From: a virus
Taxonomy: Duplodnaviria; Caudoviricetes
IMG/VR virus record: IMGVR_UViG_3300031811_000008
Span: 1-28,060 of that record
Length of the DNA stretch: 28,060 nt
Strand: one strand, 5' to 3'
The notes under the pieces are model-generated. The model worked only from the letters and a program-made list of their open reading frames with translations. It had not been told where the DNA came from and ran no database searches. Of this stretch, positions 4,249 to 23,706 are shown piece after piece. Every line of letters begins with the position of its first letter. The first letter of the stretch is position 1. Both the position numbers and the translations under genes were made by a program.

Positions 4249-4557
4249 GTGATGAATAAGACTGAACACATCCTCGCCTGCATCATCGAAGAGTGCGCCG
4301 AGGTCCAACAAGCAGCCACCAAGGCGTTGCGATTTGGACTGGAAGATCGCTACCCCGACCGTCCTCCGAATACATCTAACCGGCAGGACATCATTTCCGA
4401 ACTCGCAGACCTCCGCGCAGTTATGGATATGGCTTGCGGGCTTGGGCTTGGCATATGGATGCCCCTTGCTAATCCAGACAAGCGGAAGAAGGTTGGGAAG
4501 TGGATGGCTCACGCCGTAGGAACAGGAGCCCTCGTGGAGGATGAAGGGAGCGACTGA
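4249..4557 (+). CDS. MazG-like nucleoside triphosphate pyrophosphohydrolase
   Basis: EECAEVQQAATKALRFG ... ISELADL matches the all-alpha NTP-PPase EExxE / ExxD motifs. Confidence 0.8.
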   Translation: MMNKTEHILACIIEECAEVQQAATKALRFGLEDRYPDRPPNTSNRQDIISELADLRAVMDMACGLGLGIWMPLANPDKRKKVGKWMAHAVGTGALVEDEGSD

Positions 4558-5040
4558 ATGAAACACTTACTAATCGAACGCTTCACCACCCACCGCGATC
4601 TCGGCACCTTGTCGATGGCCAGCTTTCCGTCGATACCAAGCACCAACGCCAAGTTCCCCTATTTGGAGCCCCCGTGGGCCAATAATGAGCCTTACAAGTC
4701 CTGCGTCCCACCTGGGGTCTACACGGGAATCTGGGATAATTCGCCCAAGTACGGCGACGTCTATTTCTTGCTCGGTGGGACGGTGGTTCAGAATTCTTAT
4801 GACCTAAGCCACGGGGCCACCCGATTCGCATGTATCGCGGGGCACGGGGCCAACTGGCACTATCAGCTTCAAGGGTGCGGAGCGTTCGGGATGGCAAAGA
4901 TTGAAAACCACATAGGTCGGCCAGGATCCAACCGGCGTTCACACATGATCACGTCGTCCAAAAAGGCCCTGGGCAAGGTTCACGACATCCTCGAGCGCGA
5001 CCCCATTATCCAAATCACCATCGCCTGGGCAGCGCCATGA
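4558..5040 (+). CDS. DUF5675-family protein, putative cell-wall enzyme/endolysin
   Basis: GTL...LEPPWANNEPYKSCVPPGVY...SPKYG...HGANW..QLQGC, the characteristic DUF5675 pattern with a His/Cys pair. Confidence 0.8.
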   Translation: MKHLLIERFTTHRDLGTLSMASFPSIPSTNAKFPYLEPPWANNEPYKSCVPPGVYTGIWDNSPKYGDVYFLLGGTVVQNSYDLSHGATRFACIAGHGANWHYQLQGCGAFGMAKIENHIGRPGSNRRSHMITSSKKALGKVHDILERDPIIQITIAWAAP

Positions 5041-18507: not shown

Positions 18508-19848
18508 TTACCCCATGATACGACAGGCAAGCTCGGGCCGCGGGCAGGCTACCCCGTAGAGGACCGAAAAGCGCCAAGTCGTTTGGAAATACTCGCGCGA
18601 AATCTCGAGTTGCAGCGTTACCCCGGTCTGCGGGTCCGTAAGCGCTACGATTGTATTCCCGCCGTCGTCGTCGGGTTTCGCAGGAGCGAAAGCCAGGGCG
18701 AAAGCGTTTCGATGGAAGGCCATATTGAGGACGTGGTCGGCGGCAAAGGTGATTACCGCATCGTCCGCAAAGCCCCCGACAGGGGCGGCCGGGTAGAAGT
18801 TGACCGCGGCAATCGCGTTCGCGGCTGCCGTCAGCGTGCCGTTGGTGACCATGAAATATCCGGTCACTGAGGCAACGGTAAAGACATCGCCGGTCAACAG
18901 CGTTCCCGTGAGGGTCGACTCGTCGATCGCCATCGTAGTTGCGTCGGCGGCGACTACCCCGTCCACGTCGGCGAGTTTGCCGGAACCGTTTGAAAGCGTC
19001 CCACCGGTGAACGTCGGAACGTTTTGGTTCATCAGCCACGTTGCGCCGAGCTTGCGGCCGATCTCGCCCTCGGTGATTCCTTCCTTGTCGCCGCGCTCGT
19101 TGGCCTTGACGAACAGGTCCAACGAGGTCGCGTTGCCTTCGGCGTCTTCGTCGAGGACGACAAAGCGGTCGGCCTTCGAAGCGAGCGCGGTATTCAGGAG
19201 CTTACGAGCCCCCTTCTGCCAGACGGTCGCGAGCAGGGCCTCGGTGGCGAACGGCGTGGTTCCGGCCGTCCCGACGTGCTGTGCAACGCCGTTGGTGTTG
19301 TCGACGCCGTCGTAAGCTGCGGCGAAGGTGTCAGTATCGATCTTGTTGGCGATCGCTCGGATCGATTCGGCGCTCTGGGTATTCTTGAAGCGGCCCTTCT
19401 CGATTTCGTTGGCGTCCTTGTCGGACATATGGAAATCGGTCTTTTCCCAGTGATTTAGCGCGATCGTGACCGTGGCCGGGGTCTGATCGGTGTTCGCCGG
19501 GGGCGTAGTGGCCGGCACGACCGCGGTAGTCGTCTGGGCGACGGGTACCGGGATCGTGATTGTGTCCCCAACCTCCTTGGCGTTGCTCGAATAACCCTTG
19601 TTAACGGCGCTCAAGGTTGCACAGGATTCGCGAAGCACTTCGAGCGCCTCGGTCATTATGGTTGGAATGATTGCCGAATAAGCGTTCGCGCCGCCGGCGA
19701 TCGGATGGAGCCCCGCGCTGGCGAGCTTGGCAAGACCGGCCTTGAAAGCCTCGAACGAAAACTCGTCCTTGGCCGGCTTATCGGTGGTGAAGATTGCGGA
19801 AAAGAGGGCCAAGAAATAGCCCTTTACGGCGAAGAATAGATTCTTCAC
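18508..19848 (-). CDS. Major capsid protein (P22 coat-like, HK97 fold) with 53-aa N-terminal leader
   Basis: AN..IIP.I..EAL..L, GDTITIPVP, AIANKIDTD, R.VVLD, G.IGRKLG..W.MNQN, NMAFHRNAFALA, LYG....RPELACR. Confidence 0.93.
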   Translation of the reverse strand: MKNLFFAVKGYFLALFSAIFTTDKPAKDEFSFEAFKAGLAKLASAGLHPIAGGANAYSAIIPTIMTEALEVLRESCATLSAVNKGYSSNAKEVGDTITIPVPVAQTTTAVVPATTPPANTDQTPATVTIALNHWEKTDFHMSDKDANEIEKGRFKNTQSAESIRAIANKIDTDTFAAAYDGVDNTNGVAQHVGTAGTTPFATEALLATVWQKGARKLLNTALASKADRFVVLDEDAEGNATSLDLFVKANERGDKEGITEGEIGRKLGATWLMNQNVPTFTGGTLSNGSGKLADVDGVVAADATTMAIDESTLTGTLLTGDVFTVASVTGYFMVTNGTLTAAANAIAAVNFYPAAPVGGFADDAVITFAADHVLNMAFHRNAFALAFAPAKPDDDGGNTIVALTDPQTGVTLQLEISREYFQTTWRFSVLYGVACPRPELACRIMG

Positions 19849-19960
19849 GAGAAAGACTCCCTGAAATGGCGTTTAACTGCGTTACGCCCATCCTGAGAGC
19901 CCCCCGGACCCCTGAGCGACCCCCCCGGGGCCGTTCACGGCTGGTCGTGCGATGTGGCCG

Positions 19961-20716
19961 CTATGCGGCCTTCTCGAACCCTTCGACCTGAACGTCGCCC
20001 TTGCGGACGGCCTCGTTAAAGTCGCCGGTTTCGAATTCTGCCTGAGTGATCGTTCGCCCGCCCCCGGCTTTGCGGCGCGTTTCCTCCCCGCCGCCGCCGC
20101 CGGATCCATCGAAATAAAAGGGCTTGGCGAGCGCGTATTTCTCGAAGAATTCCCCCGGGGCCTCGTCGGCGCCGGCGTTTTTCTCCGATAAAACGGGTTT
20201 ACCGTCCACCATATGAACGAGCCGCCCGTCTTTGGATTCGAATTGAGCTTGAATTGCGCCCACCACGTCGTCTATTGCCTCGGGCCGAACCCCCGCCTCG
20301 ATGGCCTCGGTTTTGAGGACGTTAGTTACGGAAACCTCCCGCAACAGGTTTTTCGTGGTGTCGAGTTCGGCTTGCATCGCCTCGTTCCGGCGCGTGAAGT
20401 CGTCGCTCAACTTTTTCTCTTGAACGTCGAGGGCTGCGTCAATGTCTTTCGAATCGACAAGCTCTTTCCGTTCGCGCTGGCGCTTGAGGTCGGCCGCTTC
20501 CGCGGCGTCCTCGGGCGTGATATCGCCGAATTTCTCCAGGGCGGCCGACAGCTTCACGTTGTTATCGCGGAACTCGGTCAGCTTTGTATCCATCTCCCCG
20601 AGCTTCGTTTGAAGCTCTGCGACTGTGGGCTCCTCGGCCCCGCCACGGATCGGATACATCCCCGCCGCCTTAAGATTGGCGAGGCCCTTTTCGAAATCCT
20701 GCAATTTATACGCCAT
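19961..20716 (-). CDS. Capsid scaffolding protein
   Basis: 251 aa from ATG 20716; KL.EFRDNN, coiled coil, GVRPEAIDD, P.YF.GSGGGG; directly upstream of the capsid gene. Confidence 0.85.
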   Translation of the reverse strand: MAYKLQDFEKGLANLKAAGMYPIRGGAEEPTVAELQTKLGEMDTKLTEFRDNNVKLSAALEKFGDITPEDAAEAADLKRQRERKELVDSKDIDAALDVQEKKLSDDFTRRNEAMQAELDTTKNLLREVSVTNVLKTEAIEAGVRPEAIDDVVGAIQAQFESKDGRLVHMVDGKPVLSEKNAGADEAPGEFFEKYALAKPFYFDGSGGGGGEETRRKAGGGRTITQAEFETGDFNEAVRKGDVQVEGFEKAA

Positions 20717-20780
20717 TTCTACCCCCGGTAGATTGTCCCGAATCCCCGATTCGGAACGGTGAGCGCCAGTGTTGAAAAGA

Positions 20781-20810
20781 AATATACCGGAAAATCCTCT
20801 CTCCAATCAA
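20781..20810 (-). promoter_or_regulatory. Putative promoter of the scaffold-capsid-tail operon
   Basis: TTGATT-18 bp-TATATT on the minus strand, about 65 bp upstream of the scaffold ATG. Confidence 0.55.
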
Positions 20811-20840
20811 GCCAATTCCCCCCGGGGGCCAGAAAAAGGC

Positions 20841-20869
20841 TTGACTCTCTATATCACATGCGCTATATT
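20841..20869 (+). promoter_or_regulatory. Sigma70-like promoter of the + strand island
   Basis: TTGACT-17 bp-TATATT, near consensus. Confidence 0.8.
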
Positions 20870-20920
20870 CTTCACTGTGGCCGGGGCAATAAGGCGCCGG
20901 CGGCGAGGGGAGAAAATAAA

Positions 20921-21379
20921 ATGTCGGAATTTACAGTTAAGCCGGGCGACGAGGTTAAAATTCGATACACCGAATGGACTCCGAGCAAGGAATTTACGCG
21001 GACAGCCTCGGGAACCGTATTGGCCGCGATCTGCGAAAACGACAAAGGAATCGTGACCGAAATCGCGGTTCGCTTGGAAGGATCGCGGCAGAACAGCCGC
21101 GATCCTGAGGCTTACGAATGGCGCGATATCGTCCGAGTCGGCCCCGACGCGGTGCGCGCTTTGATTGTCTGCGACGAGGACGAGGACGAGCGTTGTCACA
21201 TCTGCGGAACCTGCGTTCCCGATCCGAACCGTTCCCTCTGCTCGGCCTGTGGCGAGGTAAGAGCCCACGTAATCGGCCGCCCTATGATAGCCCGAGCAAT
21301 CCTAAGAGCGCTCGACGACGAGCGCTTAACTGAGCCCGTGACCGAGGTTAAAGTCGGGCTCACCGAAACGGCATTCTAA
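20921..21379 (+). CDS. Hypothetical protein, KOW/SH3-like N-terminus plus C4 zinc finger
   Basis: 152 aa from ATG 20921 with GAGGGGAG RBS; VKPGDEVKI; CHIC-x10-CSAC. Confidence 0.75.
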   Translation: MSEFTVKPGDEVKIRYTEWTPSKEFTRTASGTVLAAICENDKGIVTEIAVRLEGSRQNSRDPEAYEWRDIVRVGPDAVRALIVCDEDEDERCHICGTCVPDPNRSLCSACGEVRAHVIGRPMIARAILRALDDERLTEPVTEVKVGLTETAF

Positions 21380-21408
21380 GTCACCCCCAACTTGAGAGGA
21401 AAAATCTA

Positions 21409-21645
21409 ATGCGTGGTCGAACTTGGCAGTTTAATGTAAATCAGATCGCCGGACAGCTGTTAGCCAAAAGCCCGAACTCCAACGTCGCAGAGGTCGCCGT
21501 CAAGGCGGCCAACATGGTCGACGCGGTATACGCCGAGCAGAGAAAGAGGAACGCGGCCGACTTTGCAGCTGCGGCGGCGGCAGATTCCGATATCGGCCCG
21601 CTGCACTCGGCCGCTGATATCTTCGGAGAGGATACCGAAAATTGA
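21409..21645 (+). CDS. Hypothetical protein
   Basis: 78 aa, GAGAGGA RBS. Confidence 0.75.
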   Translation: MRGRTWQFNVNQIAGQLLAKSPNSNVAEVAVKAANMVDAVYAEQRKRNAADFAAAAAADSDIGPLHSAADIFGEDTEN

Positions 21646-21914
21646 GGTTGAATATCAAGCCCCGCGGCGAAGTGGTCGCGGGGCTCATGCGTGGGGAAGC
21701 CGAAGCGCTACGGGAACCGCTCGACGGCATCCCCTCGAGCGAGCCGGCCACGGACAGAAGCTCCGCGCCGGCCGAGCGTGACTCCATAGATGGGAATAAA
21801 ATGACAGGGATCCGAGCCGCCAAGGAACTTACCAAGGGGGCCGCTCAGGGCTTTGCCATTGTGGTCGCCGGAATCGTCGCCCTGTTGCTTCTATTAAAGG
21901 CGGTGGGATTATGA
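21642..21914 (+). CDS. Small protein with C-terminal transmembrane helix
   Basis: TTGA overlap; GFAIVVAGIVALLLLLKAVGL. Confidence 0.7.
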   Translation: MRLNIKPRGEVVAGLMRGEAEALREPLDGIPSSEPATDRSSAPAERDSIDGNKMTGIRAAKELTKGAAQGFAIVVAGIVALLLLLKAVGL

Positions 21915-22117
21915 CCGACGGCGCTTGGATTGAATTCTCGGCCGTCTGCGCGCGCCTCAAGGGCGACTACAGCCCGAGCCCGAGCCGGCCGCGGGCGAAG
22001 CGGATAACCTGTAGGATCGGCGACAAGGAGCACGTCCAGATATGGAACCCCGAAACTGAGGCTTACGAATGGCTAGCTACAACTACGACAAAAACGGAAG
22101 CCTCGCGAAAACGATAG
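21911..22117 (+). CDS. Hypothetical protein
   Basis: 68 aa, ATGA overlap; overlaps the next gene by 49 bp. Confidence 0.55.
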   Translation: MTDGAWIEFSAVCARLKGDYSPSPSRPRAKRITCRIGDKEHVQIWNPETEAYEWLATTTTKTEASRKR

Positions 22118-22635
22118 CCGTTTCCTTGGATTCCCCCGAGCCCATTCCCGAGGTTGGACATAAGCTAACCGTCGACGGAACGACGTACGCAATTACGAAT
22201 ATCCAACTTGCCGCCGCCGGCAAGTTGGATATTCAAGGCGTTGAGTTGTATTCGAAGGCGACCTGCGACGCGGGCGGCGGGCCGCCCATGCTCAAGGCGA
22301 ACGAGGCCGGCGTCCCGTTGCCGGTCGGGCCGTGGTTCGCGCCGGACGAAGTCGAGGTCTTCAATAAAAACGCCGCCGCCGAATCGGTCTACACCCTAGA
22401 GCGCTTGGTCGAACTCGCGAAGGAAAAGCGGGCGGTCGTCTGCCCGTCGAAGTGGGGAACGCACCATAAGCCGGCCTCGTTCGTGGTGAATATGACCGGC
22501 CGCTTGATATACGGCTTGTTCGAGTTGGGCTTGTTCGTGAAGGAAAAACCGGTAAAAGCCGAGAAGGCCAAAAAGCTGCCGAAAGGGTGGGAACACGATT
22601 CCCCCGGGGGGATCCCCGGGGGGAAGGAAGATTGA
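22069..22635 (+). CDS. Hypothetical protein
   Basis: 188 aa, GAGG RBS, followed by a terminator. Confidence 0.8.
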   Translation: MASYNYDKNGSLAKTIAVSLDSPEPIPEVGHKLTVDGTTYAITNIQLAAAGKLDIQGVELYSKATCDAGGGPPMLKANEAGVPLPVGPWFAPDEVEVFNKNAAAESVYTLERLVELAKEKRAVVCPSKWGTHHKPASFVVNMTGRLIYGLFELGLFVKEKPVKAEKAKKLPKGWEHDSPGGIPGGKED

Positions 22636-22660
22636 AGGCGCTTAAACGGGCTCACAACGC

Positions 22661-22707
22661 AAAAGGGACAACCCTTAAGCTTTTACCTTAAGGGTTGCCC
22701 GCTTTCT
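22661..22707. terminator. Likely bidirectional intrinsic terminator
   Basis: CAACCCTTAAG (22669-22679) / CTTAAGGGTTG (22687-22697) stem, flanked by AAAA and TTTCT, between convergent genes. Confidence 0.75.
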
Positions 22708-22734
22708 GCTTACGGCACGATTACGACGCGCTTA

Positions 22735-22760
22735 CGATGATTCGATGATTCGATGATTCG
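22735..22760. repeat. Tandem repeat (CGATGATT)x3 with degenerate flanking units
   Basis: Directly visible. Confidence 0.85.
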
Positions 22761-22770
22761 TACGATTCGC

Positions 22771-22881
22771 TCACCTTCCGCCGCGGCGCTTTGGCTTTTT
22801 CGATTTCTTGCGATGGGGCGGGGTCATTGGCGGCTTTGGCGGGCTGGAACTGCGGCGGGTCTTCGTCGGTGTGCGTGGCAT
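22771..22881 (-). CDS. Very basic 36-aa peptide
   Basis: MPRTPTKTRRSSSPPKPPMTPPHRKKSKKPKRRGGR*; GAGG RBS 9 nt upstream; directly after the MuF-associated genes. Confidence 0.45.
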   Translation of the reverse strand: MPRTPTKTRRSSSPPKPPMTPPHRKKSKKPKRRGGR

Positions 22882-22894
22882 TTTCCATTACCTC

Positions 22895-23242
22895 TCAGGT
22901 TAAGACGGCGATATCCTTCGTCCATCGGCGCTCGGCGTTGTTCCAATGGCTTCGGATGTGATCGAGCACGGCCGCGACGCATTGTGCAACCGTTTTAAAG
23001 CGGTCTGTATCGAAGATCGGCCCGCGGTCGCCAAGCTGCGGCGCGAGCCCGTCGAGGTGGAACTCCAAAAATCCCCGCGGCAATACATCGACCTGTTTCA
23101 TTCGAACCATAACCTCGCGCGCATCCTCGGCGCTTTCATGGCGGCCGACAAATGCGACCTGCACGGCGGCCCCGTCTTCGACCCAAACGCCGACCGGCCG
23201 GTAATGCGGTTGCGGCCCTGTCCACTCTAACATGAATCTCAC
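22895..23242 (-). CDS. Hypothetical protein, candidate MuF immunity/accessory protein 2
   Basis: 115 aa from GTG 23242 (GTGA overlap with the upstream stop). Confidence 0.7.
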   Translation of the reverse strand: MRFMLEWTGPQPHYRPVGVWVEDGAAVQVAFVGRHESAEDAREVMVRMKQVDVLPRGFLEFHLDGLAPQLGDRGPIFDTDRFKTVAQCVAAVLDHIRSHWNNAERRWTKDIAVLT

Positions 23243-23706
23243 GGGCTCACCAAGGCGGGGTCTTCGTCTTCCTCTGCGTCCTCTACGGCCTCGGGAGCGA
23301 CCCACGCCTCGGCCGCGGCTGTATGCTGCGCTATGAGCTCCGCGTCGAGCTCTGGCGTATCTGCGGCGCCTGAGAGGATCCCTAAGCCTCGGTCGTCGGG
23401 AGCGGTGAACGTAAACGTTCGGCCGAGGGCGTTAGCGATTATCAGCCGGTCGCCGTCTGTGCGCCAAGTTTCCGTGCGGATAGTGCGAACCGCTTCGGCG
23501 TCGTTTTCGTACCCGAGCGCCATCGCCAAAAGCCAGACGGCCGCACCGTTGATTTCGCCGGCCTTGTATTCCGGGGCCACGCGCAAGACAACGAGCCTTT
23601 CAATCAAGGTTGAGGATGGCCCGTCGTCGATCATCATGGCCGCCCCGTCCGTGAACGGCGCGAGTTCGCGGGCATACTGCTTTAACATATCCTGGGCGTC
23701 GGTCAT
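23239..23706 (-). CDS. Acidic hypothetical protein, candidate MuF immunity/accessory protein 1
   Basis: 155 aa, ATGA overlap with the MuF stop. Confidence 0.75.
   Translation of the reverse strand: MTDAQDMLKQYARELAPFTDGAAMMIDDGPSSTLIERLVVLRVAPEYKAGEINGAAVWLLAMALGYENDAEAVRTIRTETWRTDGDRLIIANALGRTFTFTAPDDRGLGILSGAADTPELDAELIAQHTAAAEAWVAPEAVEDAEEDEDPALVSP

Follow-up and report, generated by a model that had tools for sequence, protein, structure and literature searches.

The window analysed here is a stretch of 28,060 nucleotides (nt) from the viral record IMGVR_UViG_3300031811_000008 (positions 1 to 28,060), a 28-kb fragment of an uncultured tailed phage with a CheckV completeness of 31%. Its minus strand carries the genes for a head scaffolding protein and a P22 gp5-like major capsid protein (Table 1), each of which opens with an N-terminal leader ending in Pro-Ile-x-Gly-Gly immediately before Ala. 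Homologues of the capsid carry the source name P22 coat protein, and a PDB profile search with the capsid gave a weak match, to 8e16 only. A preliminary description, made from the sequence alone, had noted a 20-residue motif common to the two leaders and had proposed that it is a new processing signal, analogous to that of staphylococcal phage 80alpha, which is cleaved by a host or distantly encoded protease and possibly gates assembly.

A leader common to scaffold and capsid

Residues 35-54 of the capsid and 8-27 of the scaffold align without gaps, with 12 of 20 positions identical, which confirms the motif as first described. None of 1000 shuffles of both proteins reaches 12 (the best shuffled 20-mer identity is 11), and with the leaders removed the best 20-mer identity between the two proteins is 7. 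Of the 12 shared codons, 7 are identical and 5 differ synonymously. The pattern P[IVLM]xGG[AS], scanned in six frames, occurs in the window at these two sites only. A third leader is found on the homologous capsid P0007 (68% identical) and ends Y-C-V-A-G-G/Ala-Asn, where the slash marks the predicted cut, from which residues are counted backwards. Gly-Gly-Ala is invariant in the three leaders and Gly stands at -8 in all of them. The window leaders are hydrophobic at -12, -7 and -4 (P0007 has His at -7), both have Pro at -5, and the scaffold has Arg at -3.

A profile of the three leaders, a scan of the kind suggested in the preliminary description, recovered from the protein collection only its own members (P0001, P0007 and P0121), which is weak evidence of absence elsewhere, and no host protein with the window leader was found with the leader profile. 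When viral contigs were scanned at the DNA level for the window's own pattern, only chance-like matches came up (9, 10 and 1 loci); the 7 inspected among the 9 held no virion-protein leader. The AlphaFold model of the capsid is poor (mean predicted local distance difference test (pLDDT) score of 40).

Four sequencing runs compared with the window are seawater metagenomes according to their records. Positions 19199-21717 are covered, with 2 differences, by a DNA contig of run X1, which may be the window's own sample; a contig of RNA run X3, which has another study code, covers 19605-20763 with none. The presence of both leaders in two runs that differ in study code rules out an assembly error as their origin. 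The X3 contigs, all from one study, span scaffold and capsid, and one of them ends at 20763, near a promoter-like site upstream of the scaffold gene, but contigs are no proof of transcription or of its start. A GTDB scan for the host gave a single match at 26%, and matches in cultured phages are ~33% identical.

The leaders as inserts among leaderless relatives

The capsid was compared with 119 non-self homologues (from the best 120 of 160 matches). P0007 is the one homologue with a Gly-Gly leader; 111 of the 119 start at the position of Ala54, and 6 were called from further inside. Thirteen of the 14 closest capsids (65-79% identical) start Met-Ala-Asn where the window has GG/Ala-Asn, the fourteenth being P0007, and the phrog_283 match likewise runs from residue 54, bearing out the earlier remark that what follows the Gly-Gly is a normal coat N-terminus. 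None of the 12 close scaffolds (54-63% identity) has the leader, several of them starting Met-Ala-Glu-Glu where the window has GG/Ala-Glu-Glu, and the motif is absent from the 150 listed scaffold representatives (of 502 matches). The motif is therefore not conserved among homologues in the literal sense (1 of 119 capsids), which the preliminary description would have counted against it, yet it behaves as an optional insert and not as an artefact.

The absence from relatives is not a matter of gene calling at loci L001-L007 and L018-L028, where the frame is closed by a stop codon 5-10 codons ahead of the capsid match; these close capsid genes are truly leaderless. Upstream of the capsid GTG, the window's DNA can be aligned with that ahead of leaderless capsid starts, the ribosome-binding site included, and the distance from scaffold to capsid start is 112 nt, versus 106-138 nt (to the Ala codon) in 8 relatives. 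The context of the scaffold ATG also matches that of close leaderless relatives. Both leaders are insertions in frame, placed directly after start codons that have homologues in the leaderless relatives, and the GG/A junction is, as judged from these alignments, the ancestral N-terminus of both proteins. No leader-bearing relative with flanking DNA was found in our searches.

A tree of the mature capsids was built from 21 rows (P0001-P0021, P0001 being the window capsid). P0001 and P0007 stand apart among leaderless capsids, and a forced grouping of the two was rejected (p-value of the approximately unbiased test, p-AU, 0.0002). This tree is compatible with two separate gains of the leader, or with a single gain and then several losses or recombination, and the leader was probably gained repeatedly in the capsid lineage. 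The window scaffold, for its part, falls within a group of scaffolds that have no leader. A capsid homologue of 38% identity, P0089, has a different, hydrophobic N-terminal extension of 18 residues, which starts Met-Lys-Asn-Leu-Phe like the window capsid and ends in a single Gly before Ala-Asn; it is possibly another leader type on the same capsid family.

The leader is unlikely to be a strict gate, as close relatives make their heads with no such leader. The suggestion that it gates assembly is accordingly doubtful: relatives 65-79% identical are leaderless, and 80alpha can do without cleavage, since capsid mutants that are uncleavable or pre-cleaved are viable and the scaffold leader is needed only intact (PMC5744158).

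The leaders might also be untranslated, or their match a remnant of an old scaffold N-terminal domain or a product of chance; we consider this very unlikely. In its favour, the leader is missing from most homologues, distant scaffolds have a different N-terminal domain of ~35 residues, and internal starts are present (Met65 in the capsid, Met20 and Met42 in the scaffold). A start downstream of the motif had been named in the preliminary description as fatal to it, and although Met65 and Met42 exist, neither GG/A junction holds an in-frame ATG, GTG or TTG. Against the leaders being untranslated or the match fortuitous stand the shuffling result and the ribosome-binding regions, which precede the leaders and align with those of the leaderless genes. 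Codon use in the leaders also fits the reading frame (scaffold leader 0.135 in frame versus -0.25 and -0.17 in the other frames; capsid leader 0.199 versus -0.27 and 0.01), which counts against untranslated leaders. Most of the distant phrog_206-like scaffolds (P0139-P0283) open with a conserved domain of ~35 residues that was lost in the window's clade. This domain was rejected as the source of the leader: a profile of 80 such N-domains scored both leaders no better than shuffles, 67 of 300 being as good for the scaffold and 147 of 300 for the capsid.

Two RNA features lie around the starts of these genes. The intergenic region and its equivalents in L001, L002, L018, L020 and L021 hold a conserved element rich in CCGGGGG runs. 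Its consensus fold has 28 pairs, 7 of them changed on both sides, with the capsid ribosome-binding site in a stem (window z -2.1), and the element possibly serves translational control. The stem of the hairpin over the scaffold ribosome-binding site (compared with L002, L018, L020 and L021; z -2.5) is kept through paired changes in L002 and L020, and is a possible site of autoregulation. No Rfam match was obtained at 19800-20900.

Table 1. Coordinates of the features in and around the head genes (positions of the window)
Feature	Position	Strand	Details
Head scaffolding protein gene	19961..20716	-	ATG start, 251 amino acids (aa); phrog_206 E 3.7e-17 from aa 32; 12 homologues at 54-63% identity
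Major capsid protein gene (P22 gp5-like)	18508..19848	-	GTG start, 446 aa; phrog_283 (major head) E 1.4e-66 from aa 54, profile position 2
Scaffold leader, residues 1-26, end Y-P-I-R-G-G	20639..20716	-	predicted cut before Ala27 (20638-20636)
Capsid leader, residues 1-53, end H-P-I-A-G-G	19690..19848	-	predicted cut before Ala54 (19689-19687)
Scaffold copy of the shared 20-residue motif, aa 8-27	20636..20695	-	
Capsid copy of the shared 20-residue motif, aa 35-54	19687..19746	-	
Scaffold-capsid intergenic region with capsid ribosome-binding site	19849..19960	-	homologous to region before start codon of leaderless relatives (alignment, 6 sequences)
Predicted hairpin over scaffold ribosome-binding site	20718..20732	-	also precedes scaffold ATG in close leaderless relatives
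Sigma-70-type promoter-like site upstream of scaffold gene	20781..20810	-	consensus match only; 2 sites in region vs 0.7 expected
MuF-like head morphogenesis fusion gene, truncated by contig end	23703..28058	-	phrog_4728, phrog_6577

Gly-Gly leader ends in other phages and the candidate protease

The same leader end occurs in other phages, and in this respect the signal is not new as first claimed. In mycobacteriophage Patience, residues 1-34 of the scaffold gp21 and residues 1-19 of the capsid gp23 both end P-I-F-G-G before Thr. The N-terminus of the Patience scaffold is published: 11 N-terminal peptides of gp21 have as their first residue number 35 (56 by the numbering of the supplement), which follows a Gly (PMC4324244), and the cryo-electron microscopy (cryo-EM) model of the capsid begins at Thr20 (PMC11965321). 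Both head proteins end their leaders with PIFGG in Konstantine and FAFGG in Suzy. The PIxGG leader end on phage head proteins is of an already known kind; what is new here is its occurrence in unrelated families of capsid and scaffold, its insertion in both genes, a gain that was probably repeated, and near-identical relatives without a leader as controls. The available parts of the two Patience papers describe no GG leader system and draw no link to gp19 (PMC4324244, PMC11965321), those of the Cluster O paper hold nothing on Gly-Gly leaders (PMC4351075), and no paper describing a Gly-Gly leader system on phage head proteins was found in a search made mostly without subscription literature.

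As in the Patience module (gp21, gp23, gp19; PDB 8GIU), the scaffold and capsid leaders of the window end in P-I-x-G-G directly before the mature N-terminus, which is assigned here by homology to leaderless relatives. Unlike those of Patience, the window capsid belongs to phrog_283 and its profile finds 8e16 and not 8GIU, whereas Patience gp23 finds 8GIU and 8SAJ; the scaffold belongs to phrog_206; and the P1' residue, the first after the cut, is Ala here and Thr there. The leader match in the window moreover spans a 20-residue helical stretch, the leader is optional within its lineage, and no JAB gene is seen.

A Gly-Gly motif on actinophage scaffolds was borne out by pattern counts in viral contigs, the matches being sorted by eye from sequence context. 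IWPIxGGA ends N-terminal leaders of scaffold-like open reading frames (ORFs) in 26 of 46 matches, and [YF]PIxGGA[DE][DE] does so in 12 of 15. All five leader-bearing actinophage scaffolds tested belong to phrog_4708. These scaffolds, of phrog_4708 and other families, resemble those of the window in their [WYF]-P-I-x-G-G/A tail, often followed by Ala-Glu-Asp/Glu as in the window scaffold, and differ in the part upstream and in that no report of their cleavage was found. Their leaders also differ in being mostly confined to the scaffold: all 17 adjacent capsid ORFs seen at the 20 loci examined are leaderless, but in L102 and L108 the capsid also has a leader, ending Q-I-A-G-G. L102, L107, L108 and L111 are Patience-like head modules with a Gly-Gly leader on the scaffold and a minor capsid gene with P-I-S-G-G near its start.

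A candidate for the enzyme that cuts these leaders comes from the cultured phages. Patience gp19 and Adjutor gp11 are Prok-JAB proteins (E-values 6.8e-10 and 4.2e-9) whose genes lie between the portal and MuF-like genes, an interval that in our phage is beyond the end of the contig, and a JAB-type gene is present in the head modules of Patience, Adjutor, Konstantine and Suzy. Proteins related to gp19 were found in 98 actinophage records. A bacterial JAMM protease (DRJAMM) cleaves a linear MoaD-MoaE fusion after Gly (PMC8832034). In a set of MoaD/ThiS tails from 32 loci, all of one bacterial phylum, the residue at -7 is hydrophobic in 32/32 and that at -5 is Pro in 21/32, as in both window leaders. 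From -7 to the cut, the MoaD/ThiS tail runs hydrophobic-x-Pro-hydrophobic-small-Gly-Gly, an order that the window leaders share, with Arg at -3 in the scaffold. The leaders are like JAMM/MPN+ substrates in this tail alone (Gly-Gly, hydrophobic -7, Pro -5); unlike MoaD/ThiS proteins, they lack the beta-grasp domain of ~75 residues.

We lean towards the explanation that the matching leaders are removed after Pro-Ile-x-Gly-Gly by a JAB/JAMM-type protease encoded in the missing part of the phage genome or by the host. Translation would start from the capsid GTG and the scaffold ATG, and a cut at GG/A, which we hold to be likely, would free the same Ala N-terminus that the leaderless relatives would gain by removal of Met. 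The enzyme is predicted to be a Gly-Gly-specific, deubiquitinase-like protease that may recognise the tail through its likeness to the C-terminus of MoaD/ThiS-type ubiquitin-like proteins. The leader, a short helix with a cut site, would most likely be a transient tag for the folding and co-assembly of the two procapsid proteins, which is the least certain part of this explanation. From the preliminary description, cleavage by a host or distantly encoded protease is retained in the form that the cut most likely falls at the relatives' normal N-terminus and the protease lies outside the window. If the JAB assignment is true, a JAB deubiquitinase-like enzyme would be a head-maturation protease.

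Several observations weigh against this explanation. One gp21 peptide of Patience retained Gly, and the 2014 Patience study placed capsid processing not at the GG but at residues 82/83, from a single peptide (both PMC4324244); the start of the cryo-EM model after the GG can also reflect disorder. Adjutor has a JAB protein, yet its shared leader ends S-G-H-D without GG, and its capsid model begins at Asn28 (PMC11965321). Pro at -5 together with I/V/L/M at -4 occurs in only 11/32 MoaD/ThiS tails. The leaders (26 and 53 residues) are too short for a ubiquitin fold and match no Pfam, NCBIfam or PHROG model, including ThiS. No protease family was detected in the window, with JAB, Prp and Peptidase_C39_2 all without a match in this 31%-complete fragment. 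Finally, a search for Prok-JAB in 15 actinophage records whose scaffold leader ends in PIxGG found none; the set includes L102 and L108, and 10 of the records reach a completeness of 90% or more.

The 15 records imply that host enzymes can make the cut, that the link to JAB is not general or that some leaders stay uncut. Of the Patience-like modules L102, L107, L108 and L111, the two records tested (100% and 94% complete) have no Prok-JAB, and it is absent from five leaderless relatives, all fragments. As the preliminary description had stated, no prohead protease is found in the window; this has little weight, as the fragment lacks the portal-MuF interval in which Patience and Adjutor keep theirs. 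In four relatives that interval holds no gene or one or two small genes, none with a protease match, and the Atlas gave no protease lead for two unexplained ORFs of the window (22069-22635 and 22895-23257).

Alternatively, the leaders are never cut, and the shared helix and strand stay as an internal peptide that binds one common site on coat, portal or chaperone, with the Gly-Gly as a flexible hinge. The twelve identities reach well beyond the cut site, a helix is modelled with low confidence at capsid residues 32-44 (pLDDT about 40-46), and no protease is found in the window or, in the case of JAB, in the 15 leader-bearing records. In 80alpha, too, the scaffold leader is needed for assembly and its cleavage is not (PMC5744158). 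We nevertheless judge retention unlikely: the second Gly directly precedes the ancestral N-terminus in both of these unrelated proteins and again in the separately placed capsid P0007, Gly-Gly-Ala is invariant in the three leaders, and the Patience scaffold is cut at the matching site (PMC4324244).

The cut at GG/A might also be the work of a non-JAB enzyme, for example a C39-type double-glycine peptidase of the host, or a phage protease, not recognised as such, from the part of the genome that is missing here. Double-glycine leaders of bacteriocins and other ribosomally synthesized and post-translationally modified peptides, cut by C39/PCAT peptidases, have GG at -2/-1, hydrophobic residues at -4, -7 and -12, an acidic residue at -8 and a helix unbroken to the cut. 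The GG and the hydrophobic spacing are seen in the window leaders, and many leader-bearing phages are without JAB genes. Unlike those leaders, the window leaders have Gly at -8 and Pro at -5, and their substrates are virion proteins, large cytoplasmic assembly proteins and not exported peptides. No C39 peptidase or transporter gene was found in the window, a fragment, nor any C39 family among the ORFs scanned, and Patience, Adjutor, Konstantine and Suzy retain a JAB-type gene in the head module. The window leader is neither a double-glycine export leader nor a full ubiquitin-like protein, and we find cleavage by a non-JAB enzyme quite improbable.

The arrangement resembles that of 80alpha: a short leader is shared by two procapsid proteins that are otherwise unrelated, Ala follows the junction, and neither a prohead protease nor another phage protease is recognisable. 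The earlier comparison with 80alpha as analogous and distinct in sequence is upheld on both counts, the junction being F/A within an L27-like motif there (PMC9405229) and, as predicted, GG/A within an unrelated motif here. With this difference and no Prp in the window, it is extremely improbable that the motif is a leader of the 80alpha type, processed by Prp, the ribosomal protease of the host. It is still not clear why scaffold and capsid of 80alpha carry the same cleavable leader (PMC5744158). A second chemistry, based on Gly-Gly and found in capsids and scaffolds of unrelated families, suggests a general device that has evolved repeatedly. The lineage described here amounts to a natural experiment, in which proteins 65-79% identical occur with and without a leader inserted behind conserved start codons. 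With such leaderless close relatives, leader function is testable with paired scaffold and coat genes, and the protease is testable in the cultured phage Patience.

A bolder and rather doubtful extension of the JAB/JAMM explanation is that unrelated phages have repeatedly evolved a short mimic of the host MoaD/ThiS Gly-Gly tail on scaffold and coat, gained at least twice in this lineage and removed by a JAB protease, their own or the host's; the released Gly-Gly peptides, in hundreds of copies, could decoy ubiquitin-like antiphage conjugation systems. If true, this would be a ubiquitin-fusion-style maturation route for tailed-phage heads, a Gly-Gly counterpart of the Prp/L27 route.

Neighbouring genes

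The minus strand also encodes neck, tape-measure and fibre genes. Portal, terminase and any genes of the portal-MuF interval lie beyond the contig end, and their order is inferred from the relatives L097, L020, L021 and L023; in relatives, portal and terminase sit upstream of the MuF-like gene. A contig of run X1 extends ~1.86 kb beyond the end of the window.

The MuF-like gene exceeds 1450 codons. Its middle part is variable, its match to the SCO1664 type is weak, and its C-terminal part (phrog_6577) is conserved and uncharacterised; in relatives its product is 869 to 1638 aa long. Two small conserved genes come after it (23239-23706 and 22895-23305), and together with them it looks like a phage polymorphic toxin/immunity cassette. 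A block of small genes on the opposite strand, 20759-22998 (+), separates this cassette from the scaffold, and the promoter-like site upstream of the scaffold gene (20810-20781, minus strand) is matched by a divergent one at 20841-20869 (+). Among these small plus-strand genes, only a 78-aa ORF has matches in relatives. At 4558-5040 (+) and 4249-4557 (+) the window encodes a DUF5675-like protein, a possible endolysin, and a MazG-like pyrophosphohydrolase.

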